Assembly: GCA_038046385.1 (NCBI GenBank)
Contig: JBBSWH010000001.1
Span: forward strand, 39,382-103,381
Length of the DNA: 64,000 bases
Direction of reading: 5' to 3'
Origin: Nanobdellota archaeon
GTDB lineage: Archaea > Nanobdellota > Nanobdellia > Woesearchaeales > GW2011-AR4
Position 1 is the first letter of the stretch; every line of letters starts with the position of its first letter. Below are positions 4,905 to 59,836 of this stretch, piece by piece. The notes beneath the pieces were generated by a model that was not told the DNA's origin, ran no database searches, and worked only from the letters and a program-made list of their open reading frames with translations. Both the position numbers and the translations under genes were made by a program.

Positions 4905-5023
4905 AGCCTCTGATGGGAATTGCACCCACGACCTTTGCCTTTTAGGCTAGCATATGGTACCAAGGCTTCGCGGATTAAAAGAATACTTCCAATCTAACGC
5001 AATGGCTACTATGCTACAGAGGC
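4905..5023 (-). tRNA. Intron-containing tRNA, isotype unresolved
   Basis: Acceptor GCCTCTG/CAGAGGC, T-arm GTGGG-TGCAATT-CCCAT, D-arm GCAT..TTGC. It is 119 nt, so ~45 nt are extra. Candidate anticodon loops read GGA or UGG, but I could not close the anticodon stem by hand. Confidence 0.55.
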
Positions 5024-5087: not shown

Positions 5088-5405
5088 CTACTTCTTCACA
5101 ACCTTTTCTTCCTTAAGCACTTTCTTTGCTATCCAGAAAACCACAAGCGCGATTATCACAAAATTCAGCAATGCAGCGACAAATGCGCCCCACTTCAGAA
5201 CTACCGGGCCTAAGTTTAGAGTTGCTTCCTGCCATGCTCCTCCGGGTATGAACGGGGTTATCAGCGGCATTATTATATTATCAACAAGCGATTTGACCAA
5301 TGCAGTTATGGCTACGCCCATTATGAATGCGACAGCCAATCCCATCACCTTATACTCTTGCAAAAATTCCTGAAATTCTTTTATCATCTGCATAAAACCA
5401 CCCAT
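5088..5405 (-). CDS. mscL: Large-conductance mechanosensitive channel MscL
   Basis: MIKEFQEFL..GLAVAFIMGVA...IIMPLI..., 2 TM and a basic C-terminus; true start probably Met7. Confidence 0.85.
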   Translation of the reverse strand: MGGFMQMIKEFQEFLQEYKVMGLAVAFIMGVAITALVKSLVDNIIMPLITPFIPGGAWQEATLNLGPVVLKWGAFVAALLNFVIIALVVFWIAKKVLKEEKVVKK

Positions 5406-7277: not shown

Positions 7278-7292
7278 GGATTTTTCTGGTGG

Positions 7293-7414
7293 AATATAAA
7301 TGCGGGGAACTGATGCGCCCCAACCTTTTCTTATATAAGAAAAGCTTGACCAAAAGAAGTATGCTACGCAGTTGTGAGGTAAACCTCACTAAAGAAAATA
7401 TAATGCGGGGGAAG
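7293..7414. mobile_element. Two-hairpin mini-insertion plus relic 3' end of tRNA-Leu(UAA), the displaced original tRNA flank
   Basis: aatataaatgcgggg (7293-7307) vs aatataatgcgggg (7397-7410). The core 7316-7392 aligns along its length with the reverse complement of 40129-40214. tgcgggggaag (7404-7414) equals the last 11 nt of the tRNA at 16760-16770. Confidence 0.7.
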
Positions 7415-7967: not shown

Positions 7968-8032
7968 ATCTTAAAAAGTTACTAAGATTTATTAATAAGC
8001 TTTCCTCTAATTAGTGTCTTCTTAAGAATTAA

Positions 8033-8941
8033 TTATAGTTTTTTGTGTTCAAGTTGCCTGATACGATTTAAAATTTTTCCAACCTCTCGTGGCCGCATGA
8101 AAGCCATAAACAGTATAAATGGAATTATAATAAAAGTTGCCCACACAACTATGACATAAATCCAAGTATAAATAACTTCGAATATATTGTTAAATTTATC
8201 AACACTCTCAATAGTTACCGACATAACCAACCAGGTCATAATAAAAAATATGTTTGCTATGGTTATTTTATTTAAGAATCTCGAAACTCTTATTTTATGG
8301 TTCAAGTACTTAATATTGTTCCCCATATGCAAGAAGAGGTAAGCTCCCAAATAAAAGATAACTGATAAGCTAAATTTGAAACTAACTTTATCTGCTGAGT
8401 CTGCACCCCCATTTACTCTGAAAAATAGATTAATAACAGTTCCTAAAAATATGGCTAATGTAGTTAGAAATTCTAATTTAGACTTTAAATCCTTGACATC
8501 AACAGAGGCAACAACTCTTAGTACTTGAGTTTGTTGGACAGTGGTTTCTGGTTTTTCTTTTACAAAAAAAGCAACTACACTCAATAATAATCCCATCAAA
8601 ATGAACAAAAGCTCCAATTGTCTGTAGTATTTTACTTTTTCATTCAGATAAATATATTTATTAGTCAAAGGACCCATATTTTCTGCCAGATTTCTCGCTT
8701 TTAGGGCATAATTTGAGCTATTGATTAAGAATTTTGTATCGCTTTTATTCATGTAATAGATTAGAAAATTAAGGTCAGATTCCGAACTCCAAGAATTAAC
8801 AGCATCACGAACGTAATCTCTTGTAGTAACAAATTCTTCTGATGTGCTTTGATAGAAATCTCCAATGAAATGAAAAAATATCGATAAAGTAACAGCTATG
8901 GTAGAAAGTATAATTAAATTATTTTTTGTTAAGCTAACCAT
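8033..8941 (-). CDS. Hypothetical multi-pass membrane protein
   Basis: 302-aa ORF with several TM segments. Confidence 0.55.
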   Translation of the reverse strand: MVSLTKNNLIILSTIAVTLSIFFHFIGDFYQSTSEEFVTTRDYVRDAVNSWSSESDLNFLIYYMNKSDTKFLINSSNYALKARNLAENMGPLTNKYIYLNEKVKYYRQLELLFILMGLLLSVVAFFVKEKPETTVQQTQVLRVVASVDVKDLKSKLEFLTTLAIFLGTVINLFFRVNGGADSADKVSFKFSLSVIFYLGAYLFLHMGNNIKYLNHKIRVSRFLNKITIANIFFIMTWLVMSVTIESVDKFNNIFEVIYTWIYVIVVWATFIIIPFILFMAFMRPREVGKILNRIRQLEHKKL

Positions 8942-9147
8942 GATTTAACCACCTCACCACCCCTTAACTGTAGTAAATAAGGCTTGTTTTATTAATTTAT
9001 CCAAAAAATATATAAGAAAATAAGCACTGGACACCTATACGCAAAGTTTAAATACTTTTAAAATTAGGGTAGTATCAGGGTATTTCGGTATACGAAATAT
9101 CCAATTCAGTCTAAGTGGTGCGGTTTACGTAATCACTTAGACTTTTT

Positions 9148-9945
9148 TTAAAATCTGGGTTCTGGGAAAACTTTTACTTTAACTGATCCATCTATTACTA
9201 CGCTTCCTATTTCTAAAGTGCATATTGGCTTTAATATTTTTAAGTACCCTTCATTATAGCACTGTTTTTTTAAATTTGAACATAGGAAGCAGTAATAGGA
9301 TCTTTGAAAAGCATAGCAAATTAAATCAGCAATTTCATAAAATGATGACTTGGACATCGGTTCAATATTTAAATCTGCTAATATATTTGAAAAATCTTTT
9401 ACATATGTGGTTCCATTCTTCATTACATCTCGATGCACCCTTTTAATATTAGACGCTAATTTAGTTGAGCTATCACATAAATTTACAATCCCTAAAGAGT
9501 TTTTATTATCTCCTCTTCCCTTAATTATTTTTTGAAATTTCTCTAATACGAACTCGTAAGCTAAAAGATAAGGGTTTGCAGGATGTTTGTATTTTTTCCT
9601 TAGGTTATGATTATCAATAACTATAATTATTGGTTCAATAGGCATCTTTGCAATGAACTCATACAGTTTCAACATTATTTCTTTGCCTTGTTGATCGGTT
9701 AGATACCCCTTATACCTATTTCTGTTGTTCCTGGAGATATGATTTAACTCTACAGCATGGGCTGGAGTAGTTTTAAGCTCTTTAGGGAATAGTGACTCTT
9801 TAAATTCTTTGAAAATCCTACTTTGATTAAAATAATCTTCTTCTTTTATAATTAAACCACCTAAAACAAAGAAATCAGATTGCTCTCTTATGTTAGGGTT
9901 ATCAATACGTGAACTTCCCGATTCATCTAAGTATAAGAGATACAT
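9148..9945 (-). CDS. DUF3800-like protein
   Basis: N-terminus MYLLYLDESGS matches the DUF3800 hallmark (hydrophobic-x-DESG); 265 aa. Confidence 0.6.
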   Translation of the reverse strand: MYLLYLDESGSSRIDNPNIREQSDFFVLGGLIIKEEDYFNQSRIFKEFKESLFPKELKTTPAHAVELNHISRNNRNRYKGYLTDQQGKEIMLKLYEFIAKMPIEPIIIVIDNHNLRKKYKHPANPYLLAYEFVLEKFQKIIKGRGDNKNSLGIVNLCDSSTKLASNIKRVHRDVMKNGTTYVKDFSNILADLNIEPMSKSSFYEIADLICYAFQRSYYCFLCSNLKKQCYNEGYLKILKPICTLEIGSVVIDGSVKVKVFPEPRF

Positions 9946-10210
9946 TATATAGGAAATTTTTTTGGTATTTATAAAGAATACTGTGTTACGCCCCTTTAAT
10001 GAAGAGGTATATGCACGCTTATATTTAAAATATTTTATTTTTTAGGTTTAAATATAATAAAAATTAGGAAAAAGTTTTGGTTATAGGATAACGCCTCGGT
10101 TAAATATATTTGAAGGCCAACCATCCTCCGATTGCAAAAGCTATCAGGCCATAAGCAATAAGTCGAAGTATAAACCTTTTATCCATTCTTTTTGGGCTGT
10201 CGAGTTAGTA

Positions 10211-10609
10211 TTATCTATTAATTGAAAAAAAACTCTCACCTTTTTTATAATTTTTTACCCTTGTAAACTTTTTTGAGTTTGGATAAATTTTAGTAAATTG
10301 ACAATCATCTATATTATCTCCCTTAAATGATATAGTTATCTCATCATAACTGCTCGGATATGTCTTAATTGCAAACTTATGAGCTGTTTCAAGATTATCT
10401 AATGCTATATGAAAAAGCCACTCAATAACAGCTTTTCCCCCCCATTTTTCTTTGATATAATCTTCGTAATCTTTAGTATAGGAATGTCGTTCTATTCTAT
10501 GATTGTATTTTAGCCATTTTCGAGGTTCATCTATCCATTGATGAAGTTCTTGAAAAGTCTGTCCAGTTCTACACTCACTTACTTCCATATGAAATTTTAG
10601 AGACGGCAT
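10211..10609 (-). CDS. Hypothetical protein
   Basis: 132-aa ORF, SD ggagg upstream, His-rich N-terminal half (ELHQWIDEP..HRIERH). Confidence 0.5.
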   Translation of the reverse strand: MPSLKFHMEVSECRTGQTFQELHQWIDEPRKWLKYNHRIERHSYTKDYEDYIKEKWGGKAVIEWLFHIALDNLETAHKFAIKTYPSSYDEITISFKGDNIDDCQFTKIYPNSKKFTRVKNYKKGESFFSINR

Positions 10610-10756
10610 CTTTAATCCTCCTAAACATTTAATTTTTTGGGCTGAAAAAGTAAAAATGAAGGGATAGTTTTTCGTTAGAATAACTTACCTTACCTTTTCC
10701 AGCTTTCCAACATAAAACCATTATAAAACATATTATAAAAGCTTTGCGACATAAAA

Positions 10757-11002
10757 TTAAGGATAATCAATACAAGACTCAGTATTTTCATCAGTACATC
10801 TATTAAATCGTCTACATGCTAAAAACCAGCCTTTGAAGAACCCATATTTCTTAAGTGCCAATATTGCATGATTTGAGCATGAAGGATAAAACCTACAAAT
10901 TATGTTTCTTTTTTTATTAAAATTTCTACCAATTTTCCCGTGCCATACTTTCTTTATAAAAAATATTGATATTAAAATCAAGAGATTATTTTTTCTTCTC
11001 AT
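10757..11002 (-). CDS. yidD: YidD-like membrane protein insertion efficiency factor
   Basis: CRFYPSCSNHAILALKKYGFFKGWFLACRRFNRC matches the YidD CRF-P-(T/S)CS...G...R..RC pattern. Confidence 0.65.
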   Translation of the reverse strand: MRRKNNLLILISIFFIKKVWHGKIGRNFNKKRNIICRFYPSCSNHAILALKKYGFFKGWFLACRRFNRCTDENTESCIDYP

Positions 11003-11294
11003 ATATACTCACTTCTTCAGTGTAATTCTGTGAACCACATTCTGGACATCTTCGTAAATTATCAAGTGAATCTTTAGATGCACCTACATTTCTTTGAGCT
11101 TGTAGAGCTGCACCAGAATTACAACAACACGCATTAGACATTTGGTTTAAAGCAGCAACACCTTTAGCACTTTCAATTTCTTTTTCTCTTTCTGATAAAG
11201 AATGCCACACCTTACCACATTCATTACATTTTCGTTTAAACTCTTTTACGTGCTTGTTCTTATCAAAATCCGCTTCCGAAATCTTTTTGCTCAT
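10986..11294 (-). CDS. Zinc-ribbon protein
   Basis: CNECG ... CPECG cysteine pairs; 102 aa. Confidence 0.55.
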   Translation of the reverse strand: MSKKISEADFDKNKHVKEFKRKCNECGKVWHSLSEREKEIESAKGVAALNQMSNACCCNSGAALQAQRNVGASKDSLDNLRRCPECGSQNYTEEVSIYEKKK

Positions 11295-11318
11295 TTTTCT
11301 AAAGATTATTTAAATATT

Positions 11319-11849
11319 TCAACACATACCATTGGTAAAACTTATCAGTTCTTTGGCATCAGCAGTGTATAGATATATATCTTTGCAAGATTTCATTAAT
11401 TCTAACCTGACGACTGGGATACCACCATCACATTCTTTTGTTTTGGATAGGCACTTATAATAGGCTTGATCTTTTGTTAAAACTTTTGGAGCTTTTGAGG
11501 TTTCATTAACCTTTTGCTGTGGCATGAAGTTAGAAATGAGAATCATAGCAGCTATAACTATAATGCCCCACAAAAAGAATTTTTTATAGTTTGGGTTTTT
11601 CTTATCTATTAAATTTGTTTTACTTACGCTAACATTTTTATTAATTTTATGTTCTCTTGACTTAAAATTCAATTTCTCTTTAAAGAACTTTCGTGATGGT
11701 GGAAGTATCACAAGTCCTATTGCGAGTGAGGTAGTTCCAACAATAAAAGATGAATCTGAAAAATTTCCTAAAGAAGCCAAAATAAAGATAATCCCAAAAA
11801 TCCAGCTAAAAACTCCTCCTAAAGTAATTTTTTTAACATCTTCTACCAT
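11319..11849 (-). CDS. Membrane protein
   Basis: 176-aa ORF with 3 TM and a Cys-containing C-terminal domain. Confidence 0.5.
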   Translation of the reverse strand: MVEDVKKITLGGVFSWIFGIIFILASLGNFSDSSFIVGTTSLAIGLVILPPSRKFFKEKLNFKSREHKINKNVSVSKTNLIDKKNPNYKKFFLWGIIVIAAMILISNFMPQQKVNETSKAPKVLTKDQAYYKCLSKTKECDGGIPVVRLELMKSCKDIYLYTADAKELISFTNGMC

Positions 11850-11881
11850 TAACTTACCACCACACTTCTATATCCATTTTT

Positions 11882-12556
11882 CTACGTTGACCTTAAGTTA
11901 ATATTAAATATATCGTTAATCTCACTATTGGAAGCAACAACTATTTTCAAGTCTTCAAGGTTTTCTGGAATATCAAACAAAACAAAACCTCTTTTTTTAA
12001 TGCCTGGGTTTATAGCATCACCAAACCCTGAAAATAAGGTAAAACTCTCTCCATTGTAAGTTCCAGTAGCATCATTATCACTAAGAAACTCCCTTCCTTG
12101 AATATCCTCTAATTTCATTAAAGTATTATCAAACTTAGCTGCCTTTTTAGCTAAATTTTCAACTTCTACTTCTATAATTAAATAAGTGCCGTCGGCTACT
12201 TGCATGCCACTAAACATTCCACCAGAAAAAGATTTTAGTTCTTTATTGCTTAAAAATGTCCACTTAAAATCTCCGGCCACTATTTCATCTTTAAAATTGT
12301 ACGTTACATTTCCAAAGAATTTTTTCTTACAATCTATAATATTGCTTACAATAGTAGATTCATCAGGGCAGACATATTGTATTTTTTCCACAATCTCAGT
12401 TTTAATTTCAACCTTTGGTGGACAAGAATTACAATCAAGCTCTTGGCACTTTGTAGAAGGACAGGCAGTTTCTTTGCATTCTGGACACTGAGGAACTGCT
12501 TGAGTACAAGCAGTAATAAACAACAATCCTATCAACAATAAAGCATAAACTTTCAA
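11882..12556 (-). CDS. Lipoprotein with Cys-rich linker and DUF4352-like beta-sandwich domain
   Basis: Signal plus lipobox FITAC; CPECKETACPSTKCQELDCNSCPP; C-terminal ..GTYLIIEVEVENLAKKA.. pattern. Confidence 0.6.
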   Translation of the reverse strand: MKVYALLLIGLLFITACTQAVPQCPECKETACPSTKCQELDCNSCPPKVEIKTEIVEKIQYVCPDESTIVSNIIDCKKKFFGNVTYNFKDEIVAGDFKWTFLSNKELKSFSGGMFSGMQVADGTYLIIEVEVENLAKKAAKFDNTLMKLEDIQGREFLSDNDATGTYNGESFTLFSGFGDAINPGIKKRGFVLFDIPENLEDLKIVVASNSEINDIFNINLRST

Positions 12557-12618
12557 ATTAAATACCCCCTAATAGATAATTTTTGAAGATGGCTTTAAAT
12601 AATTTTCTATCCTCTTAA

Positions 12619-12663
12619 TATTACGCTGATTATCACGCTTTCTTTTATTCTGATTATTACGCT
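12619..12663. promoter_or_regulatory. Direct-repeat operator candidate upstream of the wHTH gene
   Basis: ctgattatcacgct (12626-12639) and ctgattattacgct (12650-12663), plus attacgct at 12619-12626. Confidence 0.4.
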
Positions 12664-12671
12664 ATAGATAT

Positions 12672-12926
12672 ATGGATGACGAGTTAAAAATATTCTTAGC
12701 AAGAAGCAAGCTTAGAAGTAAGATTTTACAAGAGTTAGAAGAAAAGCCTCAAATAGCTTCTTTTTTGGCAAAAAAGATTAAAAAGCATAGAGAAGTTATA
12801 AGCAGGGTATTTTTGGATTTACAGAGAAAAAAGTTAGCTGTATGCACAAATTCAAAAGATTCAAGCTTTAGGTATTACAAAATAACAGAGCAAGGCAAAA
12901 AGGCACTTAAAGAGTTAAGAGTTTGA
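12672..12926 (+). CDS. Winged-helix transcriptional regulator (ArsR/TrmB-like)
   Basis: 84 aa; ..RSKILQELEEKPQIASFLAKKIKKHREVISRVFLDLQRKKL.. Confidence 0.6.
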   Translation: MDDELKIFLARSKLRSKILQELEEKPQIASFLAKKIKKHREVISRVFLDLQRKKLAVCTNSKDSSFRYYKITEQGKKALKELRV

Positions 12927-13093
12927 ATTTTCAAAATCTGACAAAAATTTCTGACAAGCGGTAGCTTTACCATATAAGAGATAAAAAATTCTACCCCCAC
13001 CCCCTATATGAAGTAATACTACTTCTATATTCTACATCCTATATAAGTCAGCACAGAAGTATTTATATAGTAGGCTTACTTTATTTATGAAAT

Positions 13094-13291
13094 ATGGAAG
13101 AACTAAAAGGAAAGAAAGTTAAGATTGTAACACTCAATTACTTCGAGACTAAGCAGAATGGGTTAATCAAAAGGCAGTACAGGGTTAGTATTGCTCCTAA
13201 GATTATAGAAAGCTTAGAACTGAAGGCTCACGATAAGCTCAAAGTATGGGTTAACAAGGCAAAGAAGCAGATTAGAATGACAAAATTATAA
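13094..13291 (+). CDS. AbrB/SpoVT-like small DNA-binding protein (tentative)
   Basis: 65 aa; RVSIAPKIIESLELKAHDKLKV resembles the AbrB/MazE swapped-hairpin motif. Confidence 0.45.
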   Translation: MEELKGKKVKIVTLNYFETKQNGLIKRQYRVSIAPKIIESLELKAHDKLKVWVNKAKKQIRMTKL

Positions 13292-13334
13292 TCATAAGAC
13301 TGCTGGCATAGACCAGCAGCTTGGAGTAAACAAA

Positions 13335-13496
13335 ATGGCTTGCGACCAATTAGATACTCCACAGGAAGCAGTTCCTGTGGCTATTAAAAACCTTTCTGGA
13401 CAAGAAAAGGTATTCAAAGACCAAAAGGCTCAGGATAGATTTGAGTACCTTGTAAGAACAAGGAATAAGGTTTGGGCAATTGTAAAATTCAAATAG
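13335..13496 (+). CDS. Small hypothetical protein (53 aa)
   Basis: Manual ORF MACDQLDTPQEAVPVAIKNLSGQEK...; below the track cutoff. Confidence 0.3.
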   Translation: MACDQLDTPQEAVPVAIKNLSGQEKVFKDQKAQDRFEYLVRTRNKVWAIVKFK

Positions 13497-13779
13497 AATT
13501 TTTTTTATTTTTCTTTTTATCCGATTCTTTTGTAAAATATGTTAGTAACTGTCCCATCATTGAATTTGGACTTATTCTTAGGGCGAGGCTTTCTAATGGG
13601 TATTTTTGGGCATTTAATGAAGATTTAAACTTTCCAATGTCTGATTTTGGGCCAGAGCTTCTTTCTCTTGAAATTTGAGCAAGCAGTTCTTTCCAATTTG
13701 AAGTTCGTTCTCTCCACTTCCTTCCTTCTGCTGCTATCTCAGGATTACCCTTTGGATTATTCCACCTTTTACCTATCAT
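13489..13779 (-). CDS. Hypothetical protein
   Basis: 96-aa ORF; competes with an antisense 68-aa ORF. Confidence 0.35.
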   Translation of the reverse strand: MIGKRWNNPKGNPEIAAEGRKWRERTSNWKELLAQISRERSSGPKSDIGKFKSSLNAQKYPLESLALRISPNSMMGQLLTYFTKESDKKKNKKNSI

Positions 13780-14057
13780 TTTTTGGTTTTGGAAGATAGT
13801 TCGTTTGGTTATTATCGATAAGTTATGAATATAAGTATTATAATCATTCTTCCTTCTTCAATAGGGCTATTATTTTTCGGTTTAGGGCTTCAAGTTGGTT
13901 AAGTTTATACCTTACCCAATCCTCAAAGTTTAACCCTTCTTCTTTTTCTTCCATTTTATAAATAATATAATTATTATATTATTGAGATGTATACTATGTA
14001 CTACGTACTGAACGTGAGATAGTGTCAAATAACATTGATGTTATGATAATATCCATA

Positions 14058-14462
14058 TTATTGTTCATGTAGTTTTGGTTTAACTTTATTCAATAAATAT
14101 TCAAATTCTTCATCTGAAAGGTCTTTTCCAAAGTTTTCGTAAAACCCTTGTTTTTGACCTTCAAAGAATTTTCTGTCTCTCTCAATAGCCTGTAGAGCGT
14201 TCTTCAAATATGGAATCCAATTTGAGTTAAGTTCTACTTTGATTTCTTCTATGCGACTTCTGCCTTTTAGTTTCTCTAATTCTTCACTCTCTTCTCTCAG
14301 TTCTTGCTGTCTTTTTTCTATTTCCTTATCAGTAAACAAATTGCTATCAATCAGTTTTCTGATATATTGAGATCTGTCCTTGCCAAGAATATTCATTCTG
14401 GCTATCTGCTCTGGTGTTAGCGTTATGCTGACATTAACAAATCTTGAGTGGTATTGTTTCAT
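14058..14462 (-). CDS. Ribbon-helix-helix (CopG-like) protein with coiled-coil tail
   Basis: VSITLTPEQIARMNILGKDRSQYIRKLID RHH pattern. Confidence 0.6.
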   Translation of the reverse strand: MKQYHSRFVNVSITLTPEQIARMNILGKDRSQYIRKLIDSNLFTDKEIEKRQQELREESEELEKLKGRSRIEEIKVELNSNWIPYLKNALQAIERDRKFFEGQKQGFYENFGKDLSDEEFEYLLNKVKPKLHEQ

Positions 14463-14655
14463 TTTTCTCCAGTTTTTTACGAATAAGTGAGCTTAAGTCT
14501 ATGCCGAGTTGTAAAGCCTCATGTTTTAATTGCAGTAACCTATCGGCTTCTAAACGAAAAGCTAAAAATTCTGTCTTCTTTTGGATATGATTGGATTTTT
14601 TCTCAAAGCCAGGGTGATAGTATTGTTTTTGCATAGTTATCACTACGTTATACAT
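14434..14655 (-). CDS. RHH-like small protein
   Basis: LAFRLEADRLLQLKHEALQLGIDLSSLIRKKLE. Confidence 0.5.
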   Translation of the reverse strand: MYNVVITMQKQYYHPGFEKKSNHIQKKTEFLAFRLEADRLLQLKHEALQLGIDLSSLIRKKLEKNETIPLKIC

Positions 14656-14780
14656 ACCTTTTTATTTCAGAATTAGCTACCCTTTATTGCTTAGGTTTGG
14701 AAGCTAATTCCTTACTTAATTCTTGCTCTGCCTCCTCTGTCAAGGAGGCTATTCTTTTAATTATATTATTATAAACTAAG

Positions 14781-14921
14781 TTAGGATTTTTCATTTTCTT
14801 TTACTGCCATTTGAATTAGTTGAAAAACAAGGTTGCTAACTGACCTACCATCTTTTTTTGCTTTATTTTTTATCTTTTCAGCAAGTTCATCTGAAATAAT
14901 AGTTTGGAGTTTTTTACTCAT
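14781..14921 (-). CDS. RHH (CopG-like) small protein, 46 aa
   Basis: Manual ORF MSKKLQTIISDELAEKIKNKAKKDGRSVSNLVFQLIQMAVKENEKS. Confidence 0.45.
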   Translation of the reverse strand: MSKKLQTIISDELAEKIKNKAKKDGRSVSNLVFQLIQMAVKENEKS

Positions 14922-15010
14922 GCTAATCGAAATGAGTATAGTGGATTAATATATAAAGAGTGATTCAATGGCAAGTTATTTGTAACACTTCGCACAAGTG
15001 CTATATTTTT

Positions 15011-15406
15011 CTAACCGGTTAGAAACCGGTTTCCACTTTTTGAAAAGTATGGGAAAGATGGAACGCGAAATCGATTTCGCAAATTGAAGCAATATGGCAA
15101 AAACTCAAATGCCAACCGGTTGGCGAACCTAAAACAATATGGTAGGGTGGGACCTGAGCATTTGACAAACCGGTTTGTCAAATTGCAACCGGTTGCAAAA
15201 TTTGAAGAAATATGGGGATGGGACTGAAAATCGATTTTCAAGATTGAAACAATACGGAATTAGGTTGCTTATAATATCTCTTTTGGTGCCGATTTTCTGG
15301 AAATCGATTTCCACTTCCAAAAATTGTTTTCGCTTTTGTCGAATCGATTCGACAAAACCAAGTAAAAATGTCAAACCGGTTTGCCATTTTGTCAAATCGA
15401 TTTTAC
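15011..15406. repeat. Array of 11 short palindromes (AAAYCGRTTT cores) interleaved with 5 TTGAARNAATATGG motifs
   Basis: Perfect palindromes at 15011-22, 15022-33, 15065-80, 15111-24, 15163-80, 15183-98, 15225-40, 15299-312, 15337-54 and 15372-83; one imperfect at 15391-406. Confidence 0.85.
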
Positions 15407-15428
15407 ATTTACTAAATATCTAAATAAA

Positions 15429-16703
15429 CTAATTCTTTAATTCCTTAATCTCCTTCTGTAGTTCTGAAACTATCTTAAACAACTTTTGTACCTCTGGGAT
15501 CTGCATAAAATTATCATATTTTTGCATTTGATCTTGTATCTTTGTTCTATCTAAGGGCCTCTTGCAGTTGTTGCACGTTTCAGAAGTAAACCCATTTTTT
15601 ACATTACAGAATAAGCAGTCTTTGATTTTTGGCTGCAATTCCTTATATTTTTCATCCTGAACTAATCCTCTTTTTACCAGCTCAATCTTAAAGGATTCAT
15701 CATGCTGGCTTAAATCATAAGTTTTGAGCTGTTTGTTAGACGTCCATCTTGCAGCGTGCTGTATTTCTAAATCACTATCCCCTCTTAATCTCCGGAAAGT
15801 TACTCCATTTCGCTTTAGGGAATAAGCAGTCACGGGCTTTTCTATTCCAAGATATTTACAGGCTGTATGTATCTTGTTGTTGATGTTTTTAGGCTTAAAT
15901 TGTTGCCCAAATTCTCTGTCACTCAAATTGACGAATAGAAAGGCATCTTTATTCTTCTTAAGCGGATGTTGCTCTAACCATTTTATAAGATAAGGATAGC
16001 TATCTATACATTGCAAAAATCCTGTTCCTTCTTTTCCATGCTCAGAAATCCATATCTTAGCATAGTTATCATAAAGCTCGACATCTTTTACTTTTGTGTA
16101 AAGAATTTCTTGTGGTCTTCCTAAACTTTCCAATGACAAAGTTAGATAAAACTGCATCCTTGGATCATTAGAAAAGAAACTAACTACTTTTTCAAACTCT
16201 TCAAACGTAACCTTATCACCCCTCCTTTTTTCTTTGCTTTTGTCAATTTTAGGGCTTAAATGCCTAACGGGATATGGCACAAGTGTATCGTCAATTCTTT
16301 CTCTTTCATCCTTTTCAGGAAAAAGCACCTTCCACATATGCTTTAGGTCTCTTATGAAATCAGATTTGCTCTTTGGAGACTTATAGGAAGTATGCATAAA
16401 AGATACAATGCTGTTGACATCCTCTCTTTCCAAATCCTTTAAGTCCTTGTCAGTTGAATTGCAAATAAGCCTCATACTCATAAGAAGCCGATTTCGCCTA
16501 ACATAGCTAAGATCTTTAGCTTCAAAAACTTTGAATAGCTGCTCGAAATAGACTAAATTATCCTTATTCTTGCAGTAGTACTTACCTCTCTTAGTTACTT
16601 CCTGCCTTTCTTCAGGCTTTACAACAAATTGATCCAGGTTTTTCTTAAATCTCCCGTAAATCCTTTCATTATGGTATATATCGTCTTCTGCCATGGCTAT
16701 CAT
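15429..16703 (-). CDS. Tyrosine recombinase/integrase with C-terminal zinc ribbon
   Basis: 424 aa; HAARWTS...LKTYD (HxxR...Y catalytic box); CLFCN..CNNC; lies directly downstream of the tRNA-Leu 3' end. Confidence 0.8.
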   Translation of the reverse strand: MIAMAEDDIYHNERIYGRFKKNLDQFVVKPEERQEVTKRGKYYCKNKDNLVYFEQLFKVFEAKDLSYVRRNRLLMSMRLICNSTDKDLKDLEREDVNSIVSFMHTSYKSPKSKSDFIRDLKHMWKVLFPEKDERERIDDTLVPYPVRHLSPKIDKSKEKRRGDKVTFEEFEKVVSFFSNDPRMQFYLTLSLESLGRPQEILYTKVKDVELYDNYAKIWISEHGKEGTGFLQCIDSYPYLIKWLEQHPLKKNKDAFLFVNLSDREFGQQFKPKNINNKIHTACKYLGIEKPVTAYSLKRNGVTFRRLRGDSDLEIQHAARWTSNKQLKTYDLSQHDESFKIELVKRGLVQDEKYKELQPKIKDCLFCNVKNGFTSETCNNCKRPLDRTKIQDQMQKYDNFMQIPEVQKLFKIVSELQKEIKELKN

Positions 16704-16759
16704 TCTCCTGCTTCCGACTTATATACTCTTGTTAAACAACGCATTCATTTAGAAAATAG

Positions 16760-16878
16760 GTGCGGGGGAAGGGATTCGAACCCCCGAATCCACTAAGGAA
16801 CAGGATAGCTTATCTCGCTTACAGCGCGAGTGTTCCATCTTAAGTCCTGCGCGTTTGGCCAGGCTTCGCTACCCCCGC
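16760..16878 (-). tRNA. tRNA-Leu(UAA), class II, ~32-nt intron in the anticodon loop
   Basis: GCGGGGG/CCCCCGC+A acceptor, CAGGA-CTTAAGA..[intron]..TCCTG, long variable arm, GGGGG-TTCGAAT-CCCTT. Confidence 0.8.
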
Positions 16879-20687: not shown

Positions 20688-20835
20688 CCCCGCGTAGCTT
20701 AACGGCGGAGCGCTCGGCTGTGAGACTTTAAAGTCTGGCTAGAGATGCGCTCTAAGACCTTACGCTATTCTAGCGAGGAATGATAGAGAGCCAGTCGTGC
20801 CCGGGAGGTTGCTGGTTCAACTCCGGCCGCGGGGA
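20688..20835 (+). tRNA. tRNA-His(GUG), tentative, with ~75-nt intron at the canonical 37/38 position
   Basis: CCCCGCG/CGCGGGG+A acceptor, D-arm GCTT..GAGC, CTCGG-CTGTGA[intron]C-CCGGG, GCTGG-TTCAACT-CCGGC; no encoded G-1. Confidence 0.7.
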
Positions 20836-20933
20836 TTTTGGGTTAGCGTCATTGCTAACCCTATATTTTTCTATTAAATACCACTGGACATCTCCGCCTA
20901 AGATATTTAAAGCAAAACATCTTAATTCTCATT

Positions 20934-21557
20934 ATGAAAACAAAAATATTGAAATATGGTTTTAAGAAACTAACAAAAGCTAAATCCAGAATCATTGCAC
21001 ATTTGATAGGAGACGGCTGTGTTTACAAAAGCAATCATGATTATAACATTAAATATGAAGTAAAAGATCAAGAATCTTTAGATTCTTTTGAAGAAGATTT
21101 GATTTCCGTTTATGGCTTAAAATTAACTAAAGGATTTAAAAATTCCGGATTTACTGGCAAGCCCATCCCTTTTATAAGATTAAGATCAAAACTGGCTTAT
21201 GAGGACTTATTGCGCTACGCAACCTATAATTCAAGAGATTGGAAAATTAATTCAATAATTCCCCCTTCATCTAAAACAATAAAAAAAGAATTTCTCAAGG
21301 CATTGTTTGATGACGAAGGAAGTGTAATAATAAAAAGCAAAAATAGCGAAGTCAGGCTCTATTCAATAAATTTGGACGGCTTAACACAAATACAAAAAAT
21401 ACTGCTGGATTTTGGTATTAACACAAAGATAACTCCAGGATACGGCTTGAAAAGGAATGTGTATGCCGTAATAATTAAGGATTTAATGGCATTTAGGAAA
21501 AAGATAGGATTCAATTTAAGGAGAAAACAAGACAAACTTGATACCTTAAAATTCTAA
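20934..21557 (+). CDS. LAGLIDADG homing endonuclease, free-standing
   Basis: IAHLIGDGCV and LKALFDDEGSV double LAGLIDADG motifs; 207 aa. Confidence 0.8.
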   Translation: MKTKILKYGFKKLTKAKSRIIAHLIGDGCVYKSNHDYNIKYEVKDQESLDSFEEDLISVYGLKLTKGFKNSGFTGKPIPFIRLRSKLAYEDLLRYATYNSRDWKINSIIPPSSKTIKKEFLKALFDDEGSVIIKSKNSEVRLYSINLDGLTQIQKILLDFGINTKITPGYGLKRNVYAVIIKDLMAFRKKIGFNLRRKQDKLDTLKF

Positions 21558-35655: not shown

Positions 35656-35708
35656 TAAACCAAAATTAAGAACTTATGTATAAAAATGTTTTTAATCAAA
35701 AGAACTCG

Positions 35709-35816
35709 TTTTGCCATCGTTCGCATGTAATGTTTTAGATTATTACAAAAATTCCTCATGGAACCTCCTTTTTGTTAAAATATTTTATAGAAAATGCTCA
35801 CAATTTGATGGCAAAA
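35709..35816. repeat. Clamped intergenic element, copy A (10-bp terminal inverted repeat)
   Basis: ttttgccatc...gatggcaaaa; subterminal gttcgcatgtaatg and aaaatgctcacaatt; right end abuts the stop codon of the 35817 gene. Confidence 0.75.
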
Positions 35817-36212
35817 TCAATAATACCTTCTTCTTCTGCCGGAGTCTTCCTGTTCTCCCCTTGCAATTCCTTCAAGGTTCACAAGCCTTTGGTTGATTGC
35901 ATCAAGGGAAGCCTTGACAGCGTCAAGCTTGCTTGATATCACTTCAAGATTTTTTGAGTTTATGTAATTGTCATTGCTTGGCATTGAAGGCTGGAAAGAC
36001 GGCTGCGATGGGAAATTCTGCGAAGGCTGGAATGAAGGATACTTCTGAAAAGGCTGCTGTGTCTGCGGCATTTCAAGCCCCATTCCCAGGTCAGGAGAAG
36101 GCCCTTGGCTGTTCATGTCCAATCCCAAATCCTTGTCAAGCCCGAGGTCTTTGCCTATGTCAGAGAAATCATCTTTTTTCTTCCAAAATGCAAGCTTGCT
36201 GAAAACGCCCAT
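35817..36212 (-). CDS. Hypothetical protein: amphipathic N-terminus, P/Q/S-rich linker, C-terminal coiled coil
   Basis: MGVFSKLAFWKKK...; QPSFQPS repeats; ..LDAVKASLDAINQRLVNLE.. Confidence 0.55.
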   Translation of the reverse strand: MGVFSKLAFWKKKDDFSDIGKDLGLDKDLGLDMNSQGPSPDLGMGLEMPQTQQPFQKYPSFQPSQNFPSQPSFQPSMPSNDNYINSKNLEVISSKLDAVKASLDAINQRLVNLEGIARGEQEDSGRRRRYY

Positions 36213-39932: not shown

Positions 39933-39986
39933 AAAGTTTTCAGCAACCTTTTTAAAGCAAGTTTATATCTTATTTTTTACATTCAT

Positions 39987-40118
39987 GCGGAGGTGCCGGA
40001 GTGGCCAAACGGGATAGGCTTAGGCGAGGCATCTTTTTGGTGTAAAGAGCCGAAAGGCAATGACTTTGAGACACCTATTAGCTTAGTGCTTACGCAGGTT
40101 CGAATCCTGTCCTCCGCA
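39987..40118 (+). tRNA. tRNA-Leu(UAG), class II, ~45-nt anticodon-loop intron
   Basis: GCGGAGG/CCTCCGC+A, ATAGG-CTTAGG[intron]A-CCTAT, long variable arm, GCAGG-TTCGAAT-CCTGT. Confidence 0.75.
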
Positions 40119-40231
40119 TTCATTTTCATTAGTGGATTCACAATCCACGACTGCGTAGCATGGTTTCTTTGGTCAAGCTTTCTTTTTATAAAGAAAGGTT
40201 GGTGGGAACCCTTACTCCGCATTCATTTTCA
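40112..40231. mobile_element. Two-hairpin mini-insertion flanked by a 17-bp direct repeat duplicating the tRNA-Leu(UAG) 3' end
   Basis: ctccgcattcattttca at 40112-40128 and 40215-40231; hairpins gtggatt/aatccac and ctttctttttataaagaaag. Confidence 0.75.
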
Positions 40232-41435: not shown

Positions 41436-41649
41436 TTATTCTACAATCTCAAGAGTGGGGGTTGCCATCGGTTCGCATGTAATGCTTAGGCGATAAAGCG
41501 TCCGTTCCCCGTAAGGGACTCAACTTGAGCATAGCTCAAGTGAGCAATTGAAGCTTTGCTTCAATTCGCTTCCCCCTTGTCCGCTAGCTGTAGATTTAAA
41601 AAAAGCTCACAAATTGATGGCAACCACAAATCACTCTACAATCTCAAGA
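41436..41649. mobile_element. Clamped intergenic element, copy B (166 bp), with duplication of the HAD gene 3' end
   Basis: TIR ggttgccatc (41460-69)/gatggcaacc (41616-25). Perfect 15-bp repeat tctacaatctcaaga at 41440-54 and 41635-49. Confidence 0.75.
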
Positions 41650-42302
41650 AGCTCTTTGATGTCATTTATCTCATAGTCTGCGCTTGAGCCGGATGCAGAA
41701 GGATTTCCGTATTTTGCGAAGCAAGTTGACATTCCCAATGACTTTGCGCCTTTTATATCCCGCTCTGGCCTGTCTCCAACCATTAAGCACTCGTGCGGCT
41801 TTACATTCAGCTTTTTGAAGGCGACCTTAAACGGCTTTGTGCTTGGCTTGAACTCTTTCGTATCATCAAACGTAACAACGACATCAAATATATGGTTTAT
41901 TTTCATGGCAACAAGTCTTATCCATGCCTTTAATCGCGGAGCGTCAGATACAATAGCCAGTTTTATGCCTTTTCTTTTCATTTCAAAAAGGACCTTGCTT
42001 ACATTCGGATACGGCTCAAGGAATCCACTTCTTACTCTCCTGTAGGCCACGATGCCGCTTGCAAGTATTTCATAGTTTATTTCCTTTGTAACCTTCTTCA
42101 GAAACTTCTGGAATATGGTTTTTTCTTCCATTCCGTATTCATTATACAAGTCGAAAAGAATCTTCATGCCTTTTTCCTTGTCCATATCCAATCCTGCGCC
42201 TATCATCGCAGTCATTGCCGCATCGCAGCTCATTTTCTTCATTGTCATGAAGTCTATCAAGGTGTTGTCAAGATCGAAGATAATTGCTTTTATCATAATC
42301 AA
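41631..42302 (-). CDS. HAD-superfamily hydrolase
   Basis: IIFDLDNTL motif I, SDAP.., VGDRPERDI. Confidence 0.8.
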   Translation of the reverse strand: MIMIKAIIFDLDNTLIDFMTMKKMSCDAAMTAMIGAGLDMDKEKGMKILFDLYNEYGMEEKTIFQKFLKKVTKEINYEILASGIVAYRRVRSGFLEPYPNVSKVLFEMKRKGIKLAIVSDAPRLKAWIRLVAMKINHIFDVVVTFDDTKEFKPSTKPFKVAFKKLNVKPHECLMVGDRPERDIKGAKSLGMSTCFAKYGNPSASGSSADYEINDIKELLEIVE

Positions 42303-43989: not shown

Positions 43990-44110
43990 GCATAGCATCC
44001 TAAGGTCAAAATTCAATTCAGAACATAATCAACTGCGTTCAGGGGGACGCCCCCTACGGGGCATGAACGATACTTAAAGTAACACATTAAGAATTTTGAA
44101 GATGCTATGC
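43990..44110. repeat. Clamped intergenic element, copy E
   Basis: gcatagcatc/gatgctatgc termini; inner stem cgttca (44036-41)/tgaacg (44064-69) around a C/G-run core. Confidence 0.65.
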
Positions 44111-44315
44111 ATTGTTTTCTTCCTTAACTATCATCCATTTTGGCAGGTCAACATTCGGATATTTCTTGTCAGAGCCTTCAAAATACGTTCCTTTTTCTTT
44201 TTCCATGCAATTCATTGAGCATAGTAAATATATAAAGATTGTTTAGTAAGATAGAGTGACTACACACGGCAGAATCAGGAAAGTATTAAAAGAGGATACT
44301 TAATGTTATACTGAA

Positions 44316-46850: not shown

Positions 46851-46938
46851 GGGCCCATAGCTCAGCCTGCTTAGAGCACAAGACTCTTAAGAATTTGGAG
46901 TTATCTTGGGGTCAGGGGTTGAAATCCCCTTGGGCCCA
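46851..46938 (+). tRNA. tRNA-Lys(CUU) with ~13-nt anticodon-loop intron
   Basis: GGGCCCA/TGGGCCC+A, GCTC..GAGC, CAAGA-CTCTTAA[intron]-TCTTG, AGGGG-TTGAAAT-CCCCT. Confidence 0.75.
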
Positions 46939-47035
46939 CTTATTTTTCTATCCGTGCAATAAAATTGCACTTGATTCCGCACTCAACTGACGGAACAGTT
47001 GGTTCGACATCCCCTTGGGCCCACTTTATTTTTCT
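46924..47035. mobile_element. Two-hairpin mini-insertion flanked by a ~26-bp direct repeat duplicating the tRNA-Lys 3' end
   Basis: atccccttgggcccactt(t)atttttct at 46924-46949 and 47009-47035; hairpins gtgcaat/attgcac and caactg/cagttg. Confidence 0.8.
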
Positions 47036-51649: not shown

Positions 51650-51812
51650 GTTTTGCCGTCAATACGTGAGCATTTTCTATTAAAACATTCAACAAAAAGG
51701 AAATTGTCCTAAAAATCTGTGGATTTTTGGGAACCTAAAAATGCCTAGCATTTTTTTGTCAATGGGAATTTTTGTAATATACTAGAACATTTAATGCGAA
51801 CGACGGCAAAAC
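51650..51812. repeat. Clamped intergenic element, copy C (inverted relative to copy A)
   Basis: gttttgccgtc/gacggcaaaac termini; the reverse complement aligns with copy A (ttttgccgtcgttcgcattaaatg..., ...aaaatgctcacgtattgacggcaaaa). Confidence 0.75.
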
Positions 51813-54241: not shown

Positions 54242-55762
54242 ATGGACGAAAAGACAACAAGGAAGAGCATGAAGTATTCTGTCTATGACGGAGCTTCGTT
54301 TGCGGTGATGGAAGGCGCGACTTCTTCATTCATGACACCGTTTGCAGTTGCGTTGAACGCTTCTTTGAATTTAATAGCTGCAATGTCGTACATTCCGCAG
54401 CTGGCGGGCGCTTTTATGCAGCTGTTTGCTGCCAGAATAGTTGAAATTGTAAGAGACAGAAAGAAAATACTAGTTTACAGTTCTTTCATCCATGCATTAT
54501 TGTGGATTCCAATGCTTCTGATACCATATGCAACTCCTAATCAGAAATATTTGATTATAGTTTACATGGCTTTGCAGACAGTTGTTTCCAATTTAATGAA
54601 TCCTGTTGGAAACTCTTTCCTCGGAGATATTGTGCCAGTAAATGAACGGGGAAGATTTTTTGGGTTAAGGAACAAAGTAGTTGGATTGAGCACTTTCATT
54701 TCAGCAATAATTGCAGGATTAATCCTGAATCATTTTTCCCCTAAAAACCCAATAATTGGATTTACAATATTGTTTTCAGTTGCATTTGTTGCAAGAGCAT
54801 TATCAGGAGTTTTTAAGTTTGGAATGACAAGCCCAGAAACACAGTTTGCACATGAAGACAAATTTTCTCTTAAAGATTTTGTAAAAAGAATGAACAAGAC
54901 CAATTACGGGCATTTTGTAATCTATATGATGTTTTTCAAGTTTGCTGTAAACATAGCGTCTCCTTTTTTTGCAGTCTACATGCTGAAAGACCTTGGATTT
55001 ACTTATATCCAATTTACAATAGTCACTGCTGTTGAACTTATGGCCAGCTTTCTCACAATGGGAATGTGGGGAAAGATGATAGATGAAAAGGGAACAAAAT
55101 CTGTGTTGTATATCACTGGAATTTTAACTCCAATAGTTCCTTTTTTTTGGCTGTTTTCTGGTAACTTCTATTATATCATATTGATAGAGCTGTTTTCTGG
55201 AGTTGCATGGGCTGGCTTTAATTTAAGCACGTCAAATTTTATATTTGATGCAGTAAGGCCGGAAAACAGGGTGCGATGCATTACATATTTCAAGTTCTTT
55301 GAAGGCATTGCCTTATTCGCCGGAGCTGCTTTAGGCGGATTTCTAATAAGCCACATCCCGCATTGGATATTTTTGTCAAGCATACCTTTTGTTTTCCTCA
55401 TATCAGGAATTTTAAGGATAATCCCTGCAGTTACCATGATGCCGACACTGCACGAAGCACGCCTGATTGAACTGGACATCGGAGATTCTTTTTTCAAAAG
55501 ATTCGTCAGGGTAAAGCCAAGCGAAGGAATTGTGTTTGAGGTCATTGGAAGGTACAACAAGAATTATGTTCCTGAAAAGAAAAAAATGCAAACAAAACCT
55601 GTTGAAAAGAAACCGGAGAAAAAACCGGTTGATTACAATAAGAAACTTTTGAAGTTCATAGACAAGAGTATAACACCCAAAAGAGAAAAGCACGACCTTA
55701 CAAATGTACATGACATAGAACAGATTACAGAAGATATTGAGAAAGGGAAGCTGAAGAAATAA
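54242..55762 (+). CDS. MFS transporter with Lys/Glu-rich C-terminal tail
   Basis: 506 aa, about 12 TM, GRFFGLRN loop motif. Confidence 0.75.
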   Translation: MDEKTTRKSMKYSVYDGASFAVMEGATSSFMTPFAVALNASLNLIAAMSYIPQLAGAFMQLFAARIVEIVRDRKKILVYSSFIHALLWIPMLLIPYATPNQKYLIIVYMALQTVVSNLMNPVGNSFLGDIVPVNERGRFFGLRNKVVGLSTFISAIIAGLILNHFSPKNPIIGFTILFSVAFVARALSGVFKFGMTSPETQFAHEDKFSLKDFVKRMNKTNYGHFVIYMMFFKFAVNIASPFFAVYMLKDLGFTYIQFTIVTAVELMASFLTMGMWGKMIDEKGTKSVLYITGILTPIVPFFWLFSGNFYYIILIELFSGVAWAGFNLSTSNFIFDAVRPENRVRCITYFKFFEGIALFAGAALGGFLISHIPHWIFLSSIPFVFLISGILRIIPAVTMMPTLHEARLIELDIGDSFFKRFVRVKPSEGIVFEVIGRYNKNYVPEKKKMQTKPVEKKPEKKPVDYNKKLLKFIDKSITPKREKHDLTNVHDIEQITEDIEKGKLKK

Positions 55763-55773
55763 CTTCTTCGCTT

Positions 55774-55892
55774 AAGGTTAGCATCGGCTCAGGTTATCTG
55801 TTTTCTTATAATAGTTGACATCCCCGTAAGGGACTTCCCCCTGTCAACTTATCTGAGTTAATGAAATACCTTCGCAAATTGATGCTAACCTT
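55774..55892. repeat. Clamped intergenic element, copy D (12-bp terminal inverted repeat)
   Basis: aaggttagcatc/gatgctaacctt; inner stem gttgaca (55814-20)/tgtcaac (55842-48) around tccccgtaagggacttccccc. Confidence 0.75.
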
Positions 55893-55936
55893 CATAAAAT
55901 CTTTTCAGACCAAAAAGTATTTATTGTCCCTTTCAA

Positions 55937-59758: not shown

Positions 59759-59836
59759 AGCCTATGGGTAAGCCTATCTCATTTAAAAAGATAATGAAAA
59801 AAAAGAATAATAAATTAAAAAAATAAAAGAAAAAGC

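Follow-up and report, generated by a model that had tools for sequence, protein, structure and literature searches.

Clamped intergenic elements in a woesearchaeal genome are probably the inner cores of foldback, MITE-like transposons that insert close to TATA boxes

Foldback MITEs are known from several groups of bacteria, as the Correia/NEMIS elements of Neisseria, the ERIC/IRU elements of enterobacteria and the RUP/BOX elements of pneumococci, and these are co-transcribed with genes. In archaea, IS-derived MITEs such as SM1-SM4 of Sulfolobus are internal-deletion derivatives, with ends in common with an identified IS and with unconstrained interiors. A different class of extragenic palindromes, the REPs, is 20-40 nt long, carries a GTAG head, lacks a target-site duplication (TSD) and depends on a Y1 transposase. 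Integration guided by a promoter or a transcription factor is known for Ty3, upstream of Pol III genes, and for the P elements, at promoters.

The elements described here share with the bacterial foldback MITEs a structure of short, non-coding, imperfect palindromes located in intergenic regions beside gene ends, the presence of TSDs, the occurrence of long and short size variants derived from internal insertions at fixed places and, presumably, a number of tens of copies per small genome and hairpins that can act on flanking transcripts. Unlike them, they belong to an archaeal host, generate a 9-bp TSD, keep a fixed distance to the TATA box, and have interior motifs that remain conserved in many environments, with variable terminal repeats. 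With the archaeal IS-derived MITEs they have in common the non-autonomous condition, the combination of terminal inverted repeats (TIRs) and TSD, and the location in archaeal chromosomes; they differ from these in their interior, which is the conserved and covarying part, and from both groups in that no partner IS was found. A census of prokaryotic MITEs includes a Woesearchaea genome with about 105 MITEs per Mb and does not describe the present family (PMC11602168). The family was also not found described in a literature search, and it is previously undescribed.

The window, that is, the whole stretch of DNA that was analysed, comprises 64,000 nucleotides. The five clamped intergenic elements (A to E) proposed in an earlier note on this DNA are real, and the sequences quoted there were found at the positions that it gave (Table 1). 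All clamps are perfect inverted repeats of 10-12 bp ending in ...C(A/G)TC / GA(T/C)G..., and the clamp 10-mers of copies B, D and E each have exactly two occurrences in the window, one on each strand (expected 0.08-0.15). Three further observations of the same note were reproduced: copy A and the reverse complement of copy C align end to end as inverted copies (88% and 82%), their clamps differ in a single compensated pair (A-T to G-C), and the elements lie at 0-27 nt from a stop codon (A 0, B 5, C 27, D 11 and E 7 nt).

Table 1. Coordinates of the elements and related features, in window positions except where a contig is named.
Feature	Position	Strand	Details
Copy A, core (helices P1-P4)	35709..35816	+	P1 TTTTGCCATC/GATGGCAAAA; R1 114 bits
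Copy A, clamp	35709-35718/35807-35816		TTTTGCCATC/GATGGCAAAA
Copy A, full inserted unit	35697..35818	+	CAAAAGAACTCG + core + TC; filled-versus-empty comparison
15-bp direct repeat TCTACAATCTCAAGA flanking B, left copy	41440..41454	.	Repeats the final codons of the HAD gene
Copy B, core	41460..41625	+	P1 GGTTGCCATC/GATGGCAACC; inverted in place versus sister ortholog
Copy B, clamp	41460-41469/41616-41625		GGTTGCCATC
Copy B, two-hairpin insertion, 50 nt	41519..41568	+	Directly 3' of the P4 hairpin
15-bp direct repeat flanking B, right copy	41635..41649	.	Within the 3' end of the HAD gene
Copy E, core	43990..44110	-	Divergent subtype; P2 is a continuous 9-bp helix
Copy E, clamp	43990-43999/44101-44110		GCATAGCATC
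Copy E, orthologs	L135:332-448 and L140:2461-2577		Sister species
Copy C, core	51650..51812	-	P1 (AG)TTTTGCCGTC/GACGGCAAAA(CT)
Copy C, clamp	51649-51660/51802-51813		AGTTTTGCCGTC/GACGGCAAAACT
Copy C, two-hairpin insertion, 53 nt	51707..51759	-	Missing from sister ortholog
Copy C, ortholog	L135:8743-8848		Sister species; P1 and P2 identical
Copy D	55749..55910	+	Core 55774-55892; R2 105 bits, model positions 1-162
Copy D, clamp	55774-55785/55881-55892		AAGGTTAGCATC
Empty site in the window	59800..59802	.	Filled in sister species, L136:10955-11108

A covariance model trained on copies A, B, C and D and one outside copy (R1) recovered E with an E-value of 0.033, which is rough, like all E-values from models R1 and R2, and no further copies beyond A-E were detected in a scan of the whole window. 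Copy E was recovered on the minus strand only and is thus opposite to the orientation that had been implied for it; the sense orientations are plus for A, B and D and minus for C and E. A sixth copy, G, of 218 nt, is located on the same contig just outside the window (L011:18803-19020), for a density of six copies per about 100 kb. Taxonomic names of hosts and relatives are those given by the sequence sources, the relatives being named 'Candidatus Woesearchaeota'.

Copies B and E are placed between convergent genes, and copies A, C and D between tandem genes. Genes flanking the copies are ordinary archaeal housekeeping genes. The host tRNA genes have long introns. Copies A, D and E supply stop codons or C-terminal codons of the neighbouring genes: the left arm of D overlaps the last codons and the stop of an MFS gene (54242-55762), and E, situated between a peptidase gene (+) and a convergent 33-aa ORF (-), contains in its 5' clamp arm the TAG stop of this ORF, which was mapped by hand (L001 2007-2108).

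In the earlier note the clamp was taken as the terminal inverted repeat of the element. The relatives retrieved from metagenomes contradict this assignment. They were searched with a pattern of two motifs common to subtypes D and F, which yielded at least 120 loci, and model R1 identified at least 110 copies of about 115-128 nt in the listed metagenome loci. In the canonical relatives the core is nested in a foldback element of ~163 bp with outer inverted repeats GGC...GCC; the true ends are ~25 nt further out than the clamp, and the 9-bp TSDs lie outside them. The clamp is helix P1 of a core of ~120 nt, internal to the mobile unit and not its end. Cores range from 108 to 166 nt and full elements from 155 to 167 bp. 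Among the matches listed, outer inverted repeats of 13-16 bp were present in about 80 of 90 copies (e.g., GGCTCTGTAGAAAG...CTTTCTACAGAGCC, GGCTGCGTTGAAAA..., GGCTTCATCCAAAAAA... and GGTTGGTGCGAAAT...), and 25 of the 35 well-bounded copies had GGC..GCC termini. The duplication was assessed on the 90 listed copies whose flanks were long enough: immediately beyond the outer repeats, 25 of these listed matches showed a 9-bp TSD with 9/9 identical positions and 13 one with 8/9, versus only 3 of 1974 mismatched partners with an identity of 8/9 or higher.

The canonical copy is one long imperfect hairpin. Layers, from the outside inwards, are P0, 5' bulge, P1, junction, P2, loops, P3, and apex. P0 corresponds to the outer arms, 13-16 bp (GGC...AAAA / TTTT...GCC). 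A conserved bulge, (A)TCTCGCnnnCG, is present on the 5' side only, between the outer repeat and P1. The junction inside P1, which includes a UC/UC internal loop, reads CATCGG-YTC on the 5' strand and TCRC-AAATT-GATG on the 3' strand. Two variable loops are found between P2 and P3, and the apex, CCCCGTAAGGGACnTCCCCC, is conserved. The elements do not contain a conserved ORF, because indels shift the frame between copies and break in some of them the ATG...TAA frames of others. Outer repeats of the same types were also found around unrelated short cargos, and shell and core are therefore modular. Conservation among canonical copies peaks in the interior motifs and not at the termini; this is atypical for transposase-recognised MITEs and is partly an effect of ascertainment, since the search pattern fixed two interior motifs. 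The family is widespread, with copies in groundwater, lake, marine, and sediment metagenomes. A subtype-specific pattern gave a single match (L007) in the public genome collection, which did not include the window's own species, and viral contigs gave no match to the element.

Of the window copies, D alone aligned to R2, a model of the full-length element; four non-standard pairs are marked in its outer arms, which are degenerate, and none in its inner helices. Copies A, B, C, E and G align to R2 from P1 to P1' only (A at model positions 31-142, hence without outer arms), and neither a TIR nor a 9-bp TSD was found at any of these five (of six local copies, G included). The copies of the window are old, and all but D are without recognisable outer arms.

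The family as a whole is short, non-coding and multi-copy, has TIRs and insertion polymorphism, and shows a TSD of fixed length, the latter absent at window copies A, C and E and replaced at B by a 15-bp repeat. Polymorphism was observed in both directions: the site of A is empty in contigs L140 and L142, and the window is empty where L136 is filled. The clamped units are probably the inner core of ~160-bp foldback, MITE-like, non-autonomous transposons of DPANN archaea of the Nanoarchaeota/Woesearchaeota type.

The copies had previously been interpreted as REP/BIME-like, a reading under which palindromes are mobilised by a RAYT (IS200-like Y1) transposase. The elements are indeed extragenic, palindromic and multi-copy, lie near gene 3' ends, and vary in sequence while their structure is preserved. 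The size, the head and the lack of a TSD that define REPs do not hold here, however: the unit of 108-166 nt does not have the size of 20-40 nt, the conserved 5' GTAG head is missing, and the canonical copies carry terminal inverted repeats and 9-bp TSDs. The search suggested earlier for a RAYT/IS200-like or other transposase gave no matching gene, Y1 genes included, among the Pfam annotations of about 104 kb of the contig. With its 9-bp TSDs the family thus behaves as a TSD-generating MITE and not as REP/BIME, and mobilisation by a RAYT transposase is scarcely credible. Integron attC sites are also imperfect palindromes of variable sequence and conserved structure, with extra-helical bases and a position directly after stop codons. 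In contrast to them, the present elements do not have RYYYAAC/GTTRRRY core sites, an integron integrase or a cassette array; housekeeping genes lie between the copies, and the canonical copies have TSDs. An attC identity was rejected by inspection, as the clamps TTTTGCC, GGTTGCC, GGTTAGC and GCATAGC do not fit RYYYAAC ... GTTRRRY.

A transposase or autonomous partner with the same ends was not found either, on the basis of TIR pairs and solo TIRs in about 0.8 Mb of loci. Solo outer repeats, considered as candidates for such a partner, corresponded to other MITEs, to chance matches within genes or to elements read from the other end.

The position of the insertions was compared with that of the TATA boxes, using the motif TTTAWATA with no more than one mismatch. 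A TATA box started 13-18 nt from the element end in 17 of 35 unique insertions among the matches listed, 15 nt being the commonest distance; this start is ~6 nt beyond the duplicated 9 bp. Motif matches within the 6-nt window were 19 of 42, versus 4 expected, again among the matches listed. The TATA box was found on either side of the element equally (8 and 9 insertions), and many of the other insertions have a looser TATA variant at this distance. The insertion point, in either orientation, precedes the TATA box by ~6 bp and is immediately upstream of the BRE/TATA region. The location of the elements after stop codons is therefore largely a consequence of insertion upstream of the TATA box of the next gene in a compact genome. 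By analogy with Ty3 and the P elements, insertion is set by the distance to the core promoter and not by the target sequence, although Ty3 and the P elements are autonomous (retro- or DNA) elements whose tethering factors are known. Target choice would read the promoter DNA, or TBP/TFB bound to the promoter, and a trans-acting DDE-type transposase would make the 9-bp staggered cut. Duplications of 8-10 bp are produced by the IS4, IS1, IS256 and ISAs1 families.

The proposal that selection acts on the stem was upheld and extended, as covariation beyond chance was detected in five helices and not in the clamp alone. Alignment A5, of 39 full-length copies with pairwise identity below 88%, was analysed with RNAalifold and an explicit pair count, and contained the outer arms (P0), the clamp (P1), P2, P3, and P4. 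Over 35 pairs, 92.1% of cells were paired versus 70.3% in shuffled alignments (0 of 500 shuffles matched this value), the covariation score was 0.581 versus 0.184 in the shuffles, and double-sided changes were found in 32 of the 35 pairs. When the partner was slid by 1-3 columns, pairing fell to 33-42%. Helix P1 was the cleanest (98.4% paired), with 307 Watson-Crick pairs in 312 cells and no G:T in any of them. Mismatches across the 39 copies were equally rare for G:T (29) and A:C (36). Ascertainment bias from the search pattern is confined to the apex and the 3' junction, each of which it prescribed in part; all stems, the bulge, the 5' junction and, within the 3' junction, the AAA are unaffected.

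When selection acts on a helix in a single RNA strand, G:U is normally tolerated and A:C is not. The strict Watson-Crick pairing observed implies that both strands are able to fold equally well, and it favours a constraint at DNA level, or on folding in both directions, over a helix in one RNA strand. The arms would be kept complementary by this strict pairing, through a DNA-level requirement or folding in both orientations. It had been argued that TIRs recognised by a transposase are normally conserved and that the covarying arms pointed to a selected stem, an RNA helix or a DNA cruciform; the selection stands, but an argument from TIR conservation and covariation to RNA does not apply here. 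In a young subfamily of 16 copies with a GTGGCC clamp at different loci, changes affected 1.7% of stem sites and 1.5% of loop sites, and 18 of 31 stem changes break a pair. Recently amplified copies decay neutrally, as expected of transposon copies.

Rfam 15, searched with the window and six short loci, had no family matching the elements, whether at gathering thresholds or at E <= 10, and ARAGORN gave no tRNA-like match at them. K-turn, C/D-box, H/ACA, hammerhead, twister, 5S rRNA, SRP RNA and retron msr/msd were discarded by inspection, as their defining motifs are missing. Nevertheless, the cores could be structured ncRNA genes read from one strand, some copies of which were captured and spread by MITE shells. 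The five covarying helices, the conserved loops with a GNRA-like GUAA apex, the modular shell with the same outer repeats on unrelated short cargos, and the strong stem constraint in orthologs (see below) agree with such genes, as does the orientation, which is kept at C and E and in the sister copy of D, though this is of a different subtype. The rarity of G:U, no commoner than A:C and null in P1, together with the lack of a stem-versus-loop difference in young copies, argues against a single-strand RNA gene. In addition, no conserved promoter or terminator was identified, the cores match no Rfam family, and the core of B is inverted with respect to its neighbours with the stems unchanged. 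One-strand ncRNA genes are accordingly an unlikely origin of the cores, and that of a transposon core is retained in what follows.

To assess the constraint on the old copies, the syntenic contigs of a sister species (L135-L137, L140 and L141) were compared with the window. Divergence between both species is 35% at fourfold sites (288 of 823). Copies at the orthologous loci were present for B, C, D and E, with the same orientation at C, D and E. In the orthologs of B, C and E, segmented by structure, and thus for three loci in one sister species, 4 of 145 stem positions (2.8%) and 45 of 194 unpaired positions (23%) had changed, P3 of C being excluded (Fisher p = 1.6e-8; stems versus fourfold sites, p = 3e-19). 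The old retained cores are under structural constraint, their paired positions being about ten-fold more conserved than the loops (B, C and E). In P3 at the C locus, 4 of 7 pairs differ and all of them are compensated (ACAAAAA/TTTTTGT versus ATCGCAA/TTGCGAT). The G-C pair that separates the clamp of C from that of A is present in both species and is therefore older than the species split. At the D locus, the sister copy is of a different subtype with five compensated clamp differences, which points to replacement or recombination between copies.

Complementarity could also arise from a mutational mechanism alone, such as hairpin-templated quasi-palindrome correction in replication, without selection on the inserted copies. 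The strict Watson-Crick symmetry fits this mechanism, and the four adjacent compensated P3 pairs of the C orthologs resemble one templated event rather than eight point mutations. Under it, however, compensated pair changes are predicted at the neutral rate of ~35%, and none of the 4 changes seen at the 145 stem positions is compensated (P3 of C excluded); young copies, moreover, keep uncorrected mismatches. A purely mutational origin of the complementarity is very unlikely, and structural constraint on retained cores is the preferred reading.

Not all events followed the canonical pattern. Copy A is a lineage-specific insertion of 122 bp, formed by a 5' linker of 12 nt, the core and 'TC', and its site is empty in the sister species (L140) and in the more distant L142, both with a 36-nt gap and a TAA stop. 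The element entered the TAA stop of gene 35817-36212(-), its last two bases giving the 'GA' of TGA. It abuts the stop exactly, as reported earlier, because it was inserted inside TAA and the stop was rebuilt as TGA. The copy is flanked by AAT/AAT only, without outer arms, TIR or 9-bp duplication, and the lspA TATA box is no more than about 10 nt from its insertion point.

The core of copy B, excluding the 50-nt insert that is missing from the sister-species ortholog, is ~93% identical to L140:4381-4541 sense to sense. The flanks are identical and align only in the orientation opposite to that of the core. The long linker has changed sides, from 5' to 3', which means that the core was flipped between the P1 arms. 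The 15-bp repeat of B, the right copy of which is within the HAD gene (41631-42302(-), ending in ...LEIVE*), was discarded as a plain TSD: the duplication is also present in the sister species, and its halves carry swapped TAA/TGA variants.

The P1 arms might be the recombination sites of an inverton, with a core that flips to regulate its neighbours. The B core has opposite orientations in the two sister species, its flanks are identical and the breakpoints fall in the P1 arms, all as an inverton would give; exchange between arms would also keep them perfectly complementary. Nonetheless, a core flipped with respect to the asymmetric outer linkers was found in 0 of about 105 metagenomic copies among the matches listed, a single flip was seen over 35% synonymous divergence, and no promoter was identified inside the core. 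There is also no recombinase beside any copy, as the sole PF00589 gene of the window (15429-16703) belongs to a separate integrated island about 25 kb away. A regulatory inverton is highly improbable. The core-only insertion of A and the flip of B indicate that the core bounded by P1 is also able to behave as a unit. Given that five of the six local copies do not have TIR or TSD, and A has a 3-bp repeat only, some of the spread was not by classical transposition.

The sister species has an extra copy at the site that is empty in the window (about 59801). Nested two-hairpin inserts of 50-93 nt were found in B, C, G and several metagenomic copies, and the insert of G is homologous to that of the extra copy of the sister species, at a different position in the element.

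The retained cores may have been co-opted by the host. Their most likely role would be that of a strand-symmetric hairpin at gene 3' ends, protecting transcript 3' ends or insulating or terminating transcription in both directions. The window copies do not regularly have a T-run downstream of the hairpin. A host function of the retained cores as orientation-independent 3'-end hairpins, suggested by their position and constraint, is put forward tentatively. Also tentative is the complete scheme, in which the core would be a host-domesticated strand-symmetric element (bidirectional 3'-end hairpin or cruciform DNA site), delivered by a transposon that reads TBP/TFB-bound BRE/TATA and cuts at a fixed distance of about 6 bp upstream, and would also spread or flip without the transposon ends. 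If true, this would make it the first example of archaeal integration guided by a promoter.

DPANN genomes are about 1 Mb in size and have little spare DNA, yet the family is abundant in them. Model R2 can be used to annotate these elements, which are currently unannotated and overlap called gene ends. The family is more than another MITE, as what is conserved and covaries is its interior and not its ends, and its targeting by distance to the TATA box offers a way to study how the architecture of archaeal promoters might be read by a transposase. The conservation of stems over loops at orthologous sites is direct evidence of a selfish hairpin gaining a constrained role.

Outer inverted repeats (GGCTTCATCCAAAA..., GGTTGGTGCGAAA...) bound the hairpin, MITE-like family to which copies A-E of the window belong, and are common to other short elements whose interiors are unrelated (see the table). 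The same outer repeats around unrelated interiors argue that these repeats mark a wider group of MITEs with one mobilisation system in common.

Features of the window and of related loci (L numbers, fetched loci; other coordinates, window)
Feature	Position	Strand	Source or remark
Nested two-hairpin inserts	41519-41568 (copy B); 51707-51759 (copy C); inside L011:18803-19020 (copy G); inside L136:10955-11108 (sister species, extra copy); L052; L023; L067
Short elements with the outer inverted repeats of the family	L104/L107 about 5170-5270; L033:1981-2160; L021:6700-6873; L063:244-420
33-aa ORF, MEKEKGTYFEGSDKKYPNVDLPKWMIVKEENNA and stop	about 44105-44206	-	Flanked by copy E and the Pth2 gene
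Gene with weak Phage_integrase (PF00589) match	15429-16703	-	Pfam
Intron-containing tRNA gene adjoining the PF00589 gene	16761-16878	-	Rfam
Other tRNA genes	4905-5023; 20688-20835; 39985-40119; 46851-46938		Rfam
LAGLIDADG_3 gene	20934-21557		Just 3' of the 148-nt tRNA gene (20688-20835)

Several copies were compared with those of the syntenic sister species. The short ORF near copy E, the TAG stop of which falls within a clamp arm of that copy (the clamp being the perfect inverted repeat that bounds the element core), is almost 100% identical in nucleotide sequence between the two species, against a fourfold-site divergence of 35%. The direct repeats flanking copy B (41440-41454 and 41635-41649) are the duplicated last codons of the HAD gene, as are those of the sister species (L140, about 4385-4405 and 4522-4545), and the left and right placement of the TAA- and TGA-containing variants is swapped between the window and the sister species; a simple inversion does not readily account for this swap. 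Downstream of the D-locus element in the sister species, a segment of about 38 nt is repeated in tandem (AACCAAAAAGTATACTCACTGGCGTTCGTGACTTTTTG twice; L135, about 12800-12900); the window lacks this duplication.

The tRNA genes of the window are 88-148 nt long and therefore carry long introns; in contrast to the Rfam matches, ARAGORN reported no tRNA genes in the window. Immediately after the 148-nt gene, the hairpin GGTTAGCgtcattGCTAACC (20841-20860) shares its clamp sequence with copy D and lacks an interior; it could be a remnant, a footprint or a coincidence. The PF00589 gene adjoins its tRNA gene and, at 15020-15410, a segment densely packed with short perfect palindromes (AAATCGATTT, CAAACCGGTTTG, CAACCGGTTG). 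The region around them, a low-GC stretch from about 8000 to 16800, has a GC content of 30%, and resembles a separate integrated element.

Repeated segments resembling tRNA 3' ends were observed at 40082-40230, 7292-7376, 16752-16797 and 46916-47032. CTCCGCATTCATTTTC occurs twice, 100 nt apart, 3' of the probable tRNA at 39985-40119; 7292-7376 and 40146-40230 form an inverted match of 85 nt, and the GGGCCCACTT segment is duplicated (46916/47001). These segments may be what is left of att sites after integration events.

The elements themselves contain two-hairpin inserts of 50-93 nt, at differing positions. Those of copy G, a sixth copy on the same contig just outside the window, and of the extra copy of the sister species are homologous to each other (TGTCGTAAATC...GAAATTTTTGACA). 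Variable position, together with this homology, suggests that the nested inserts represent a second, still smaller mobile hairpin preying on the first hairpin element.
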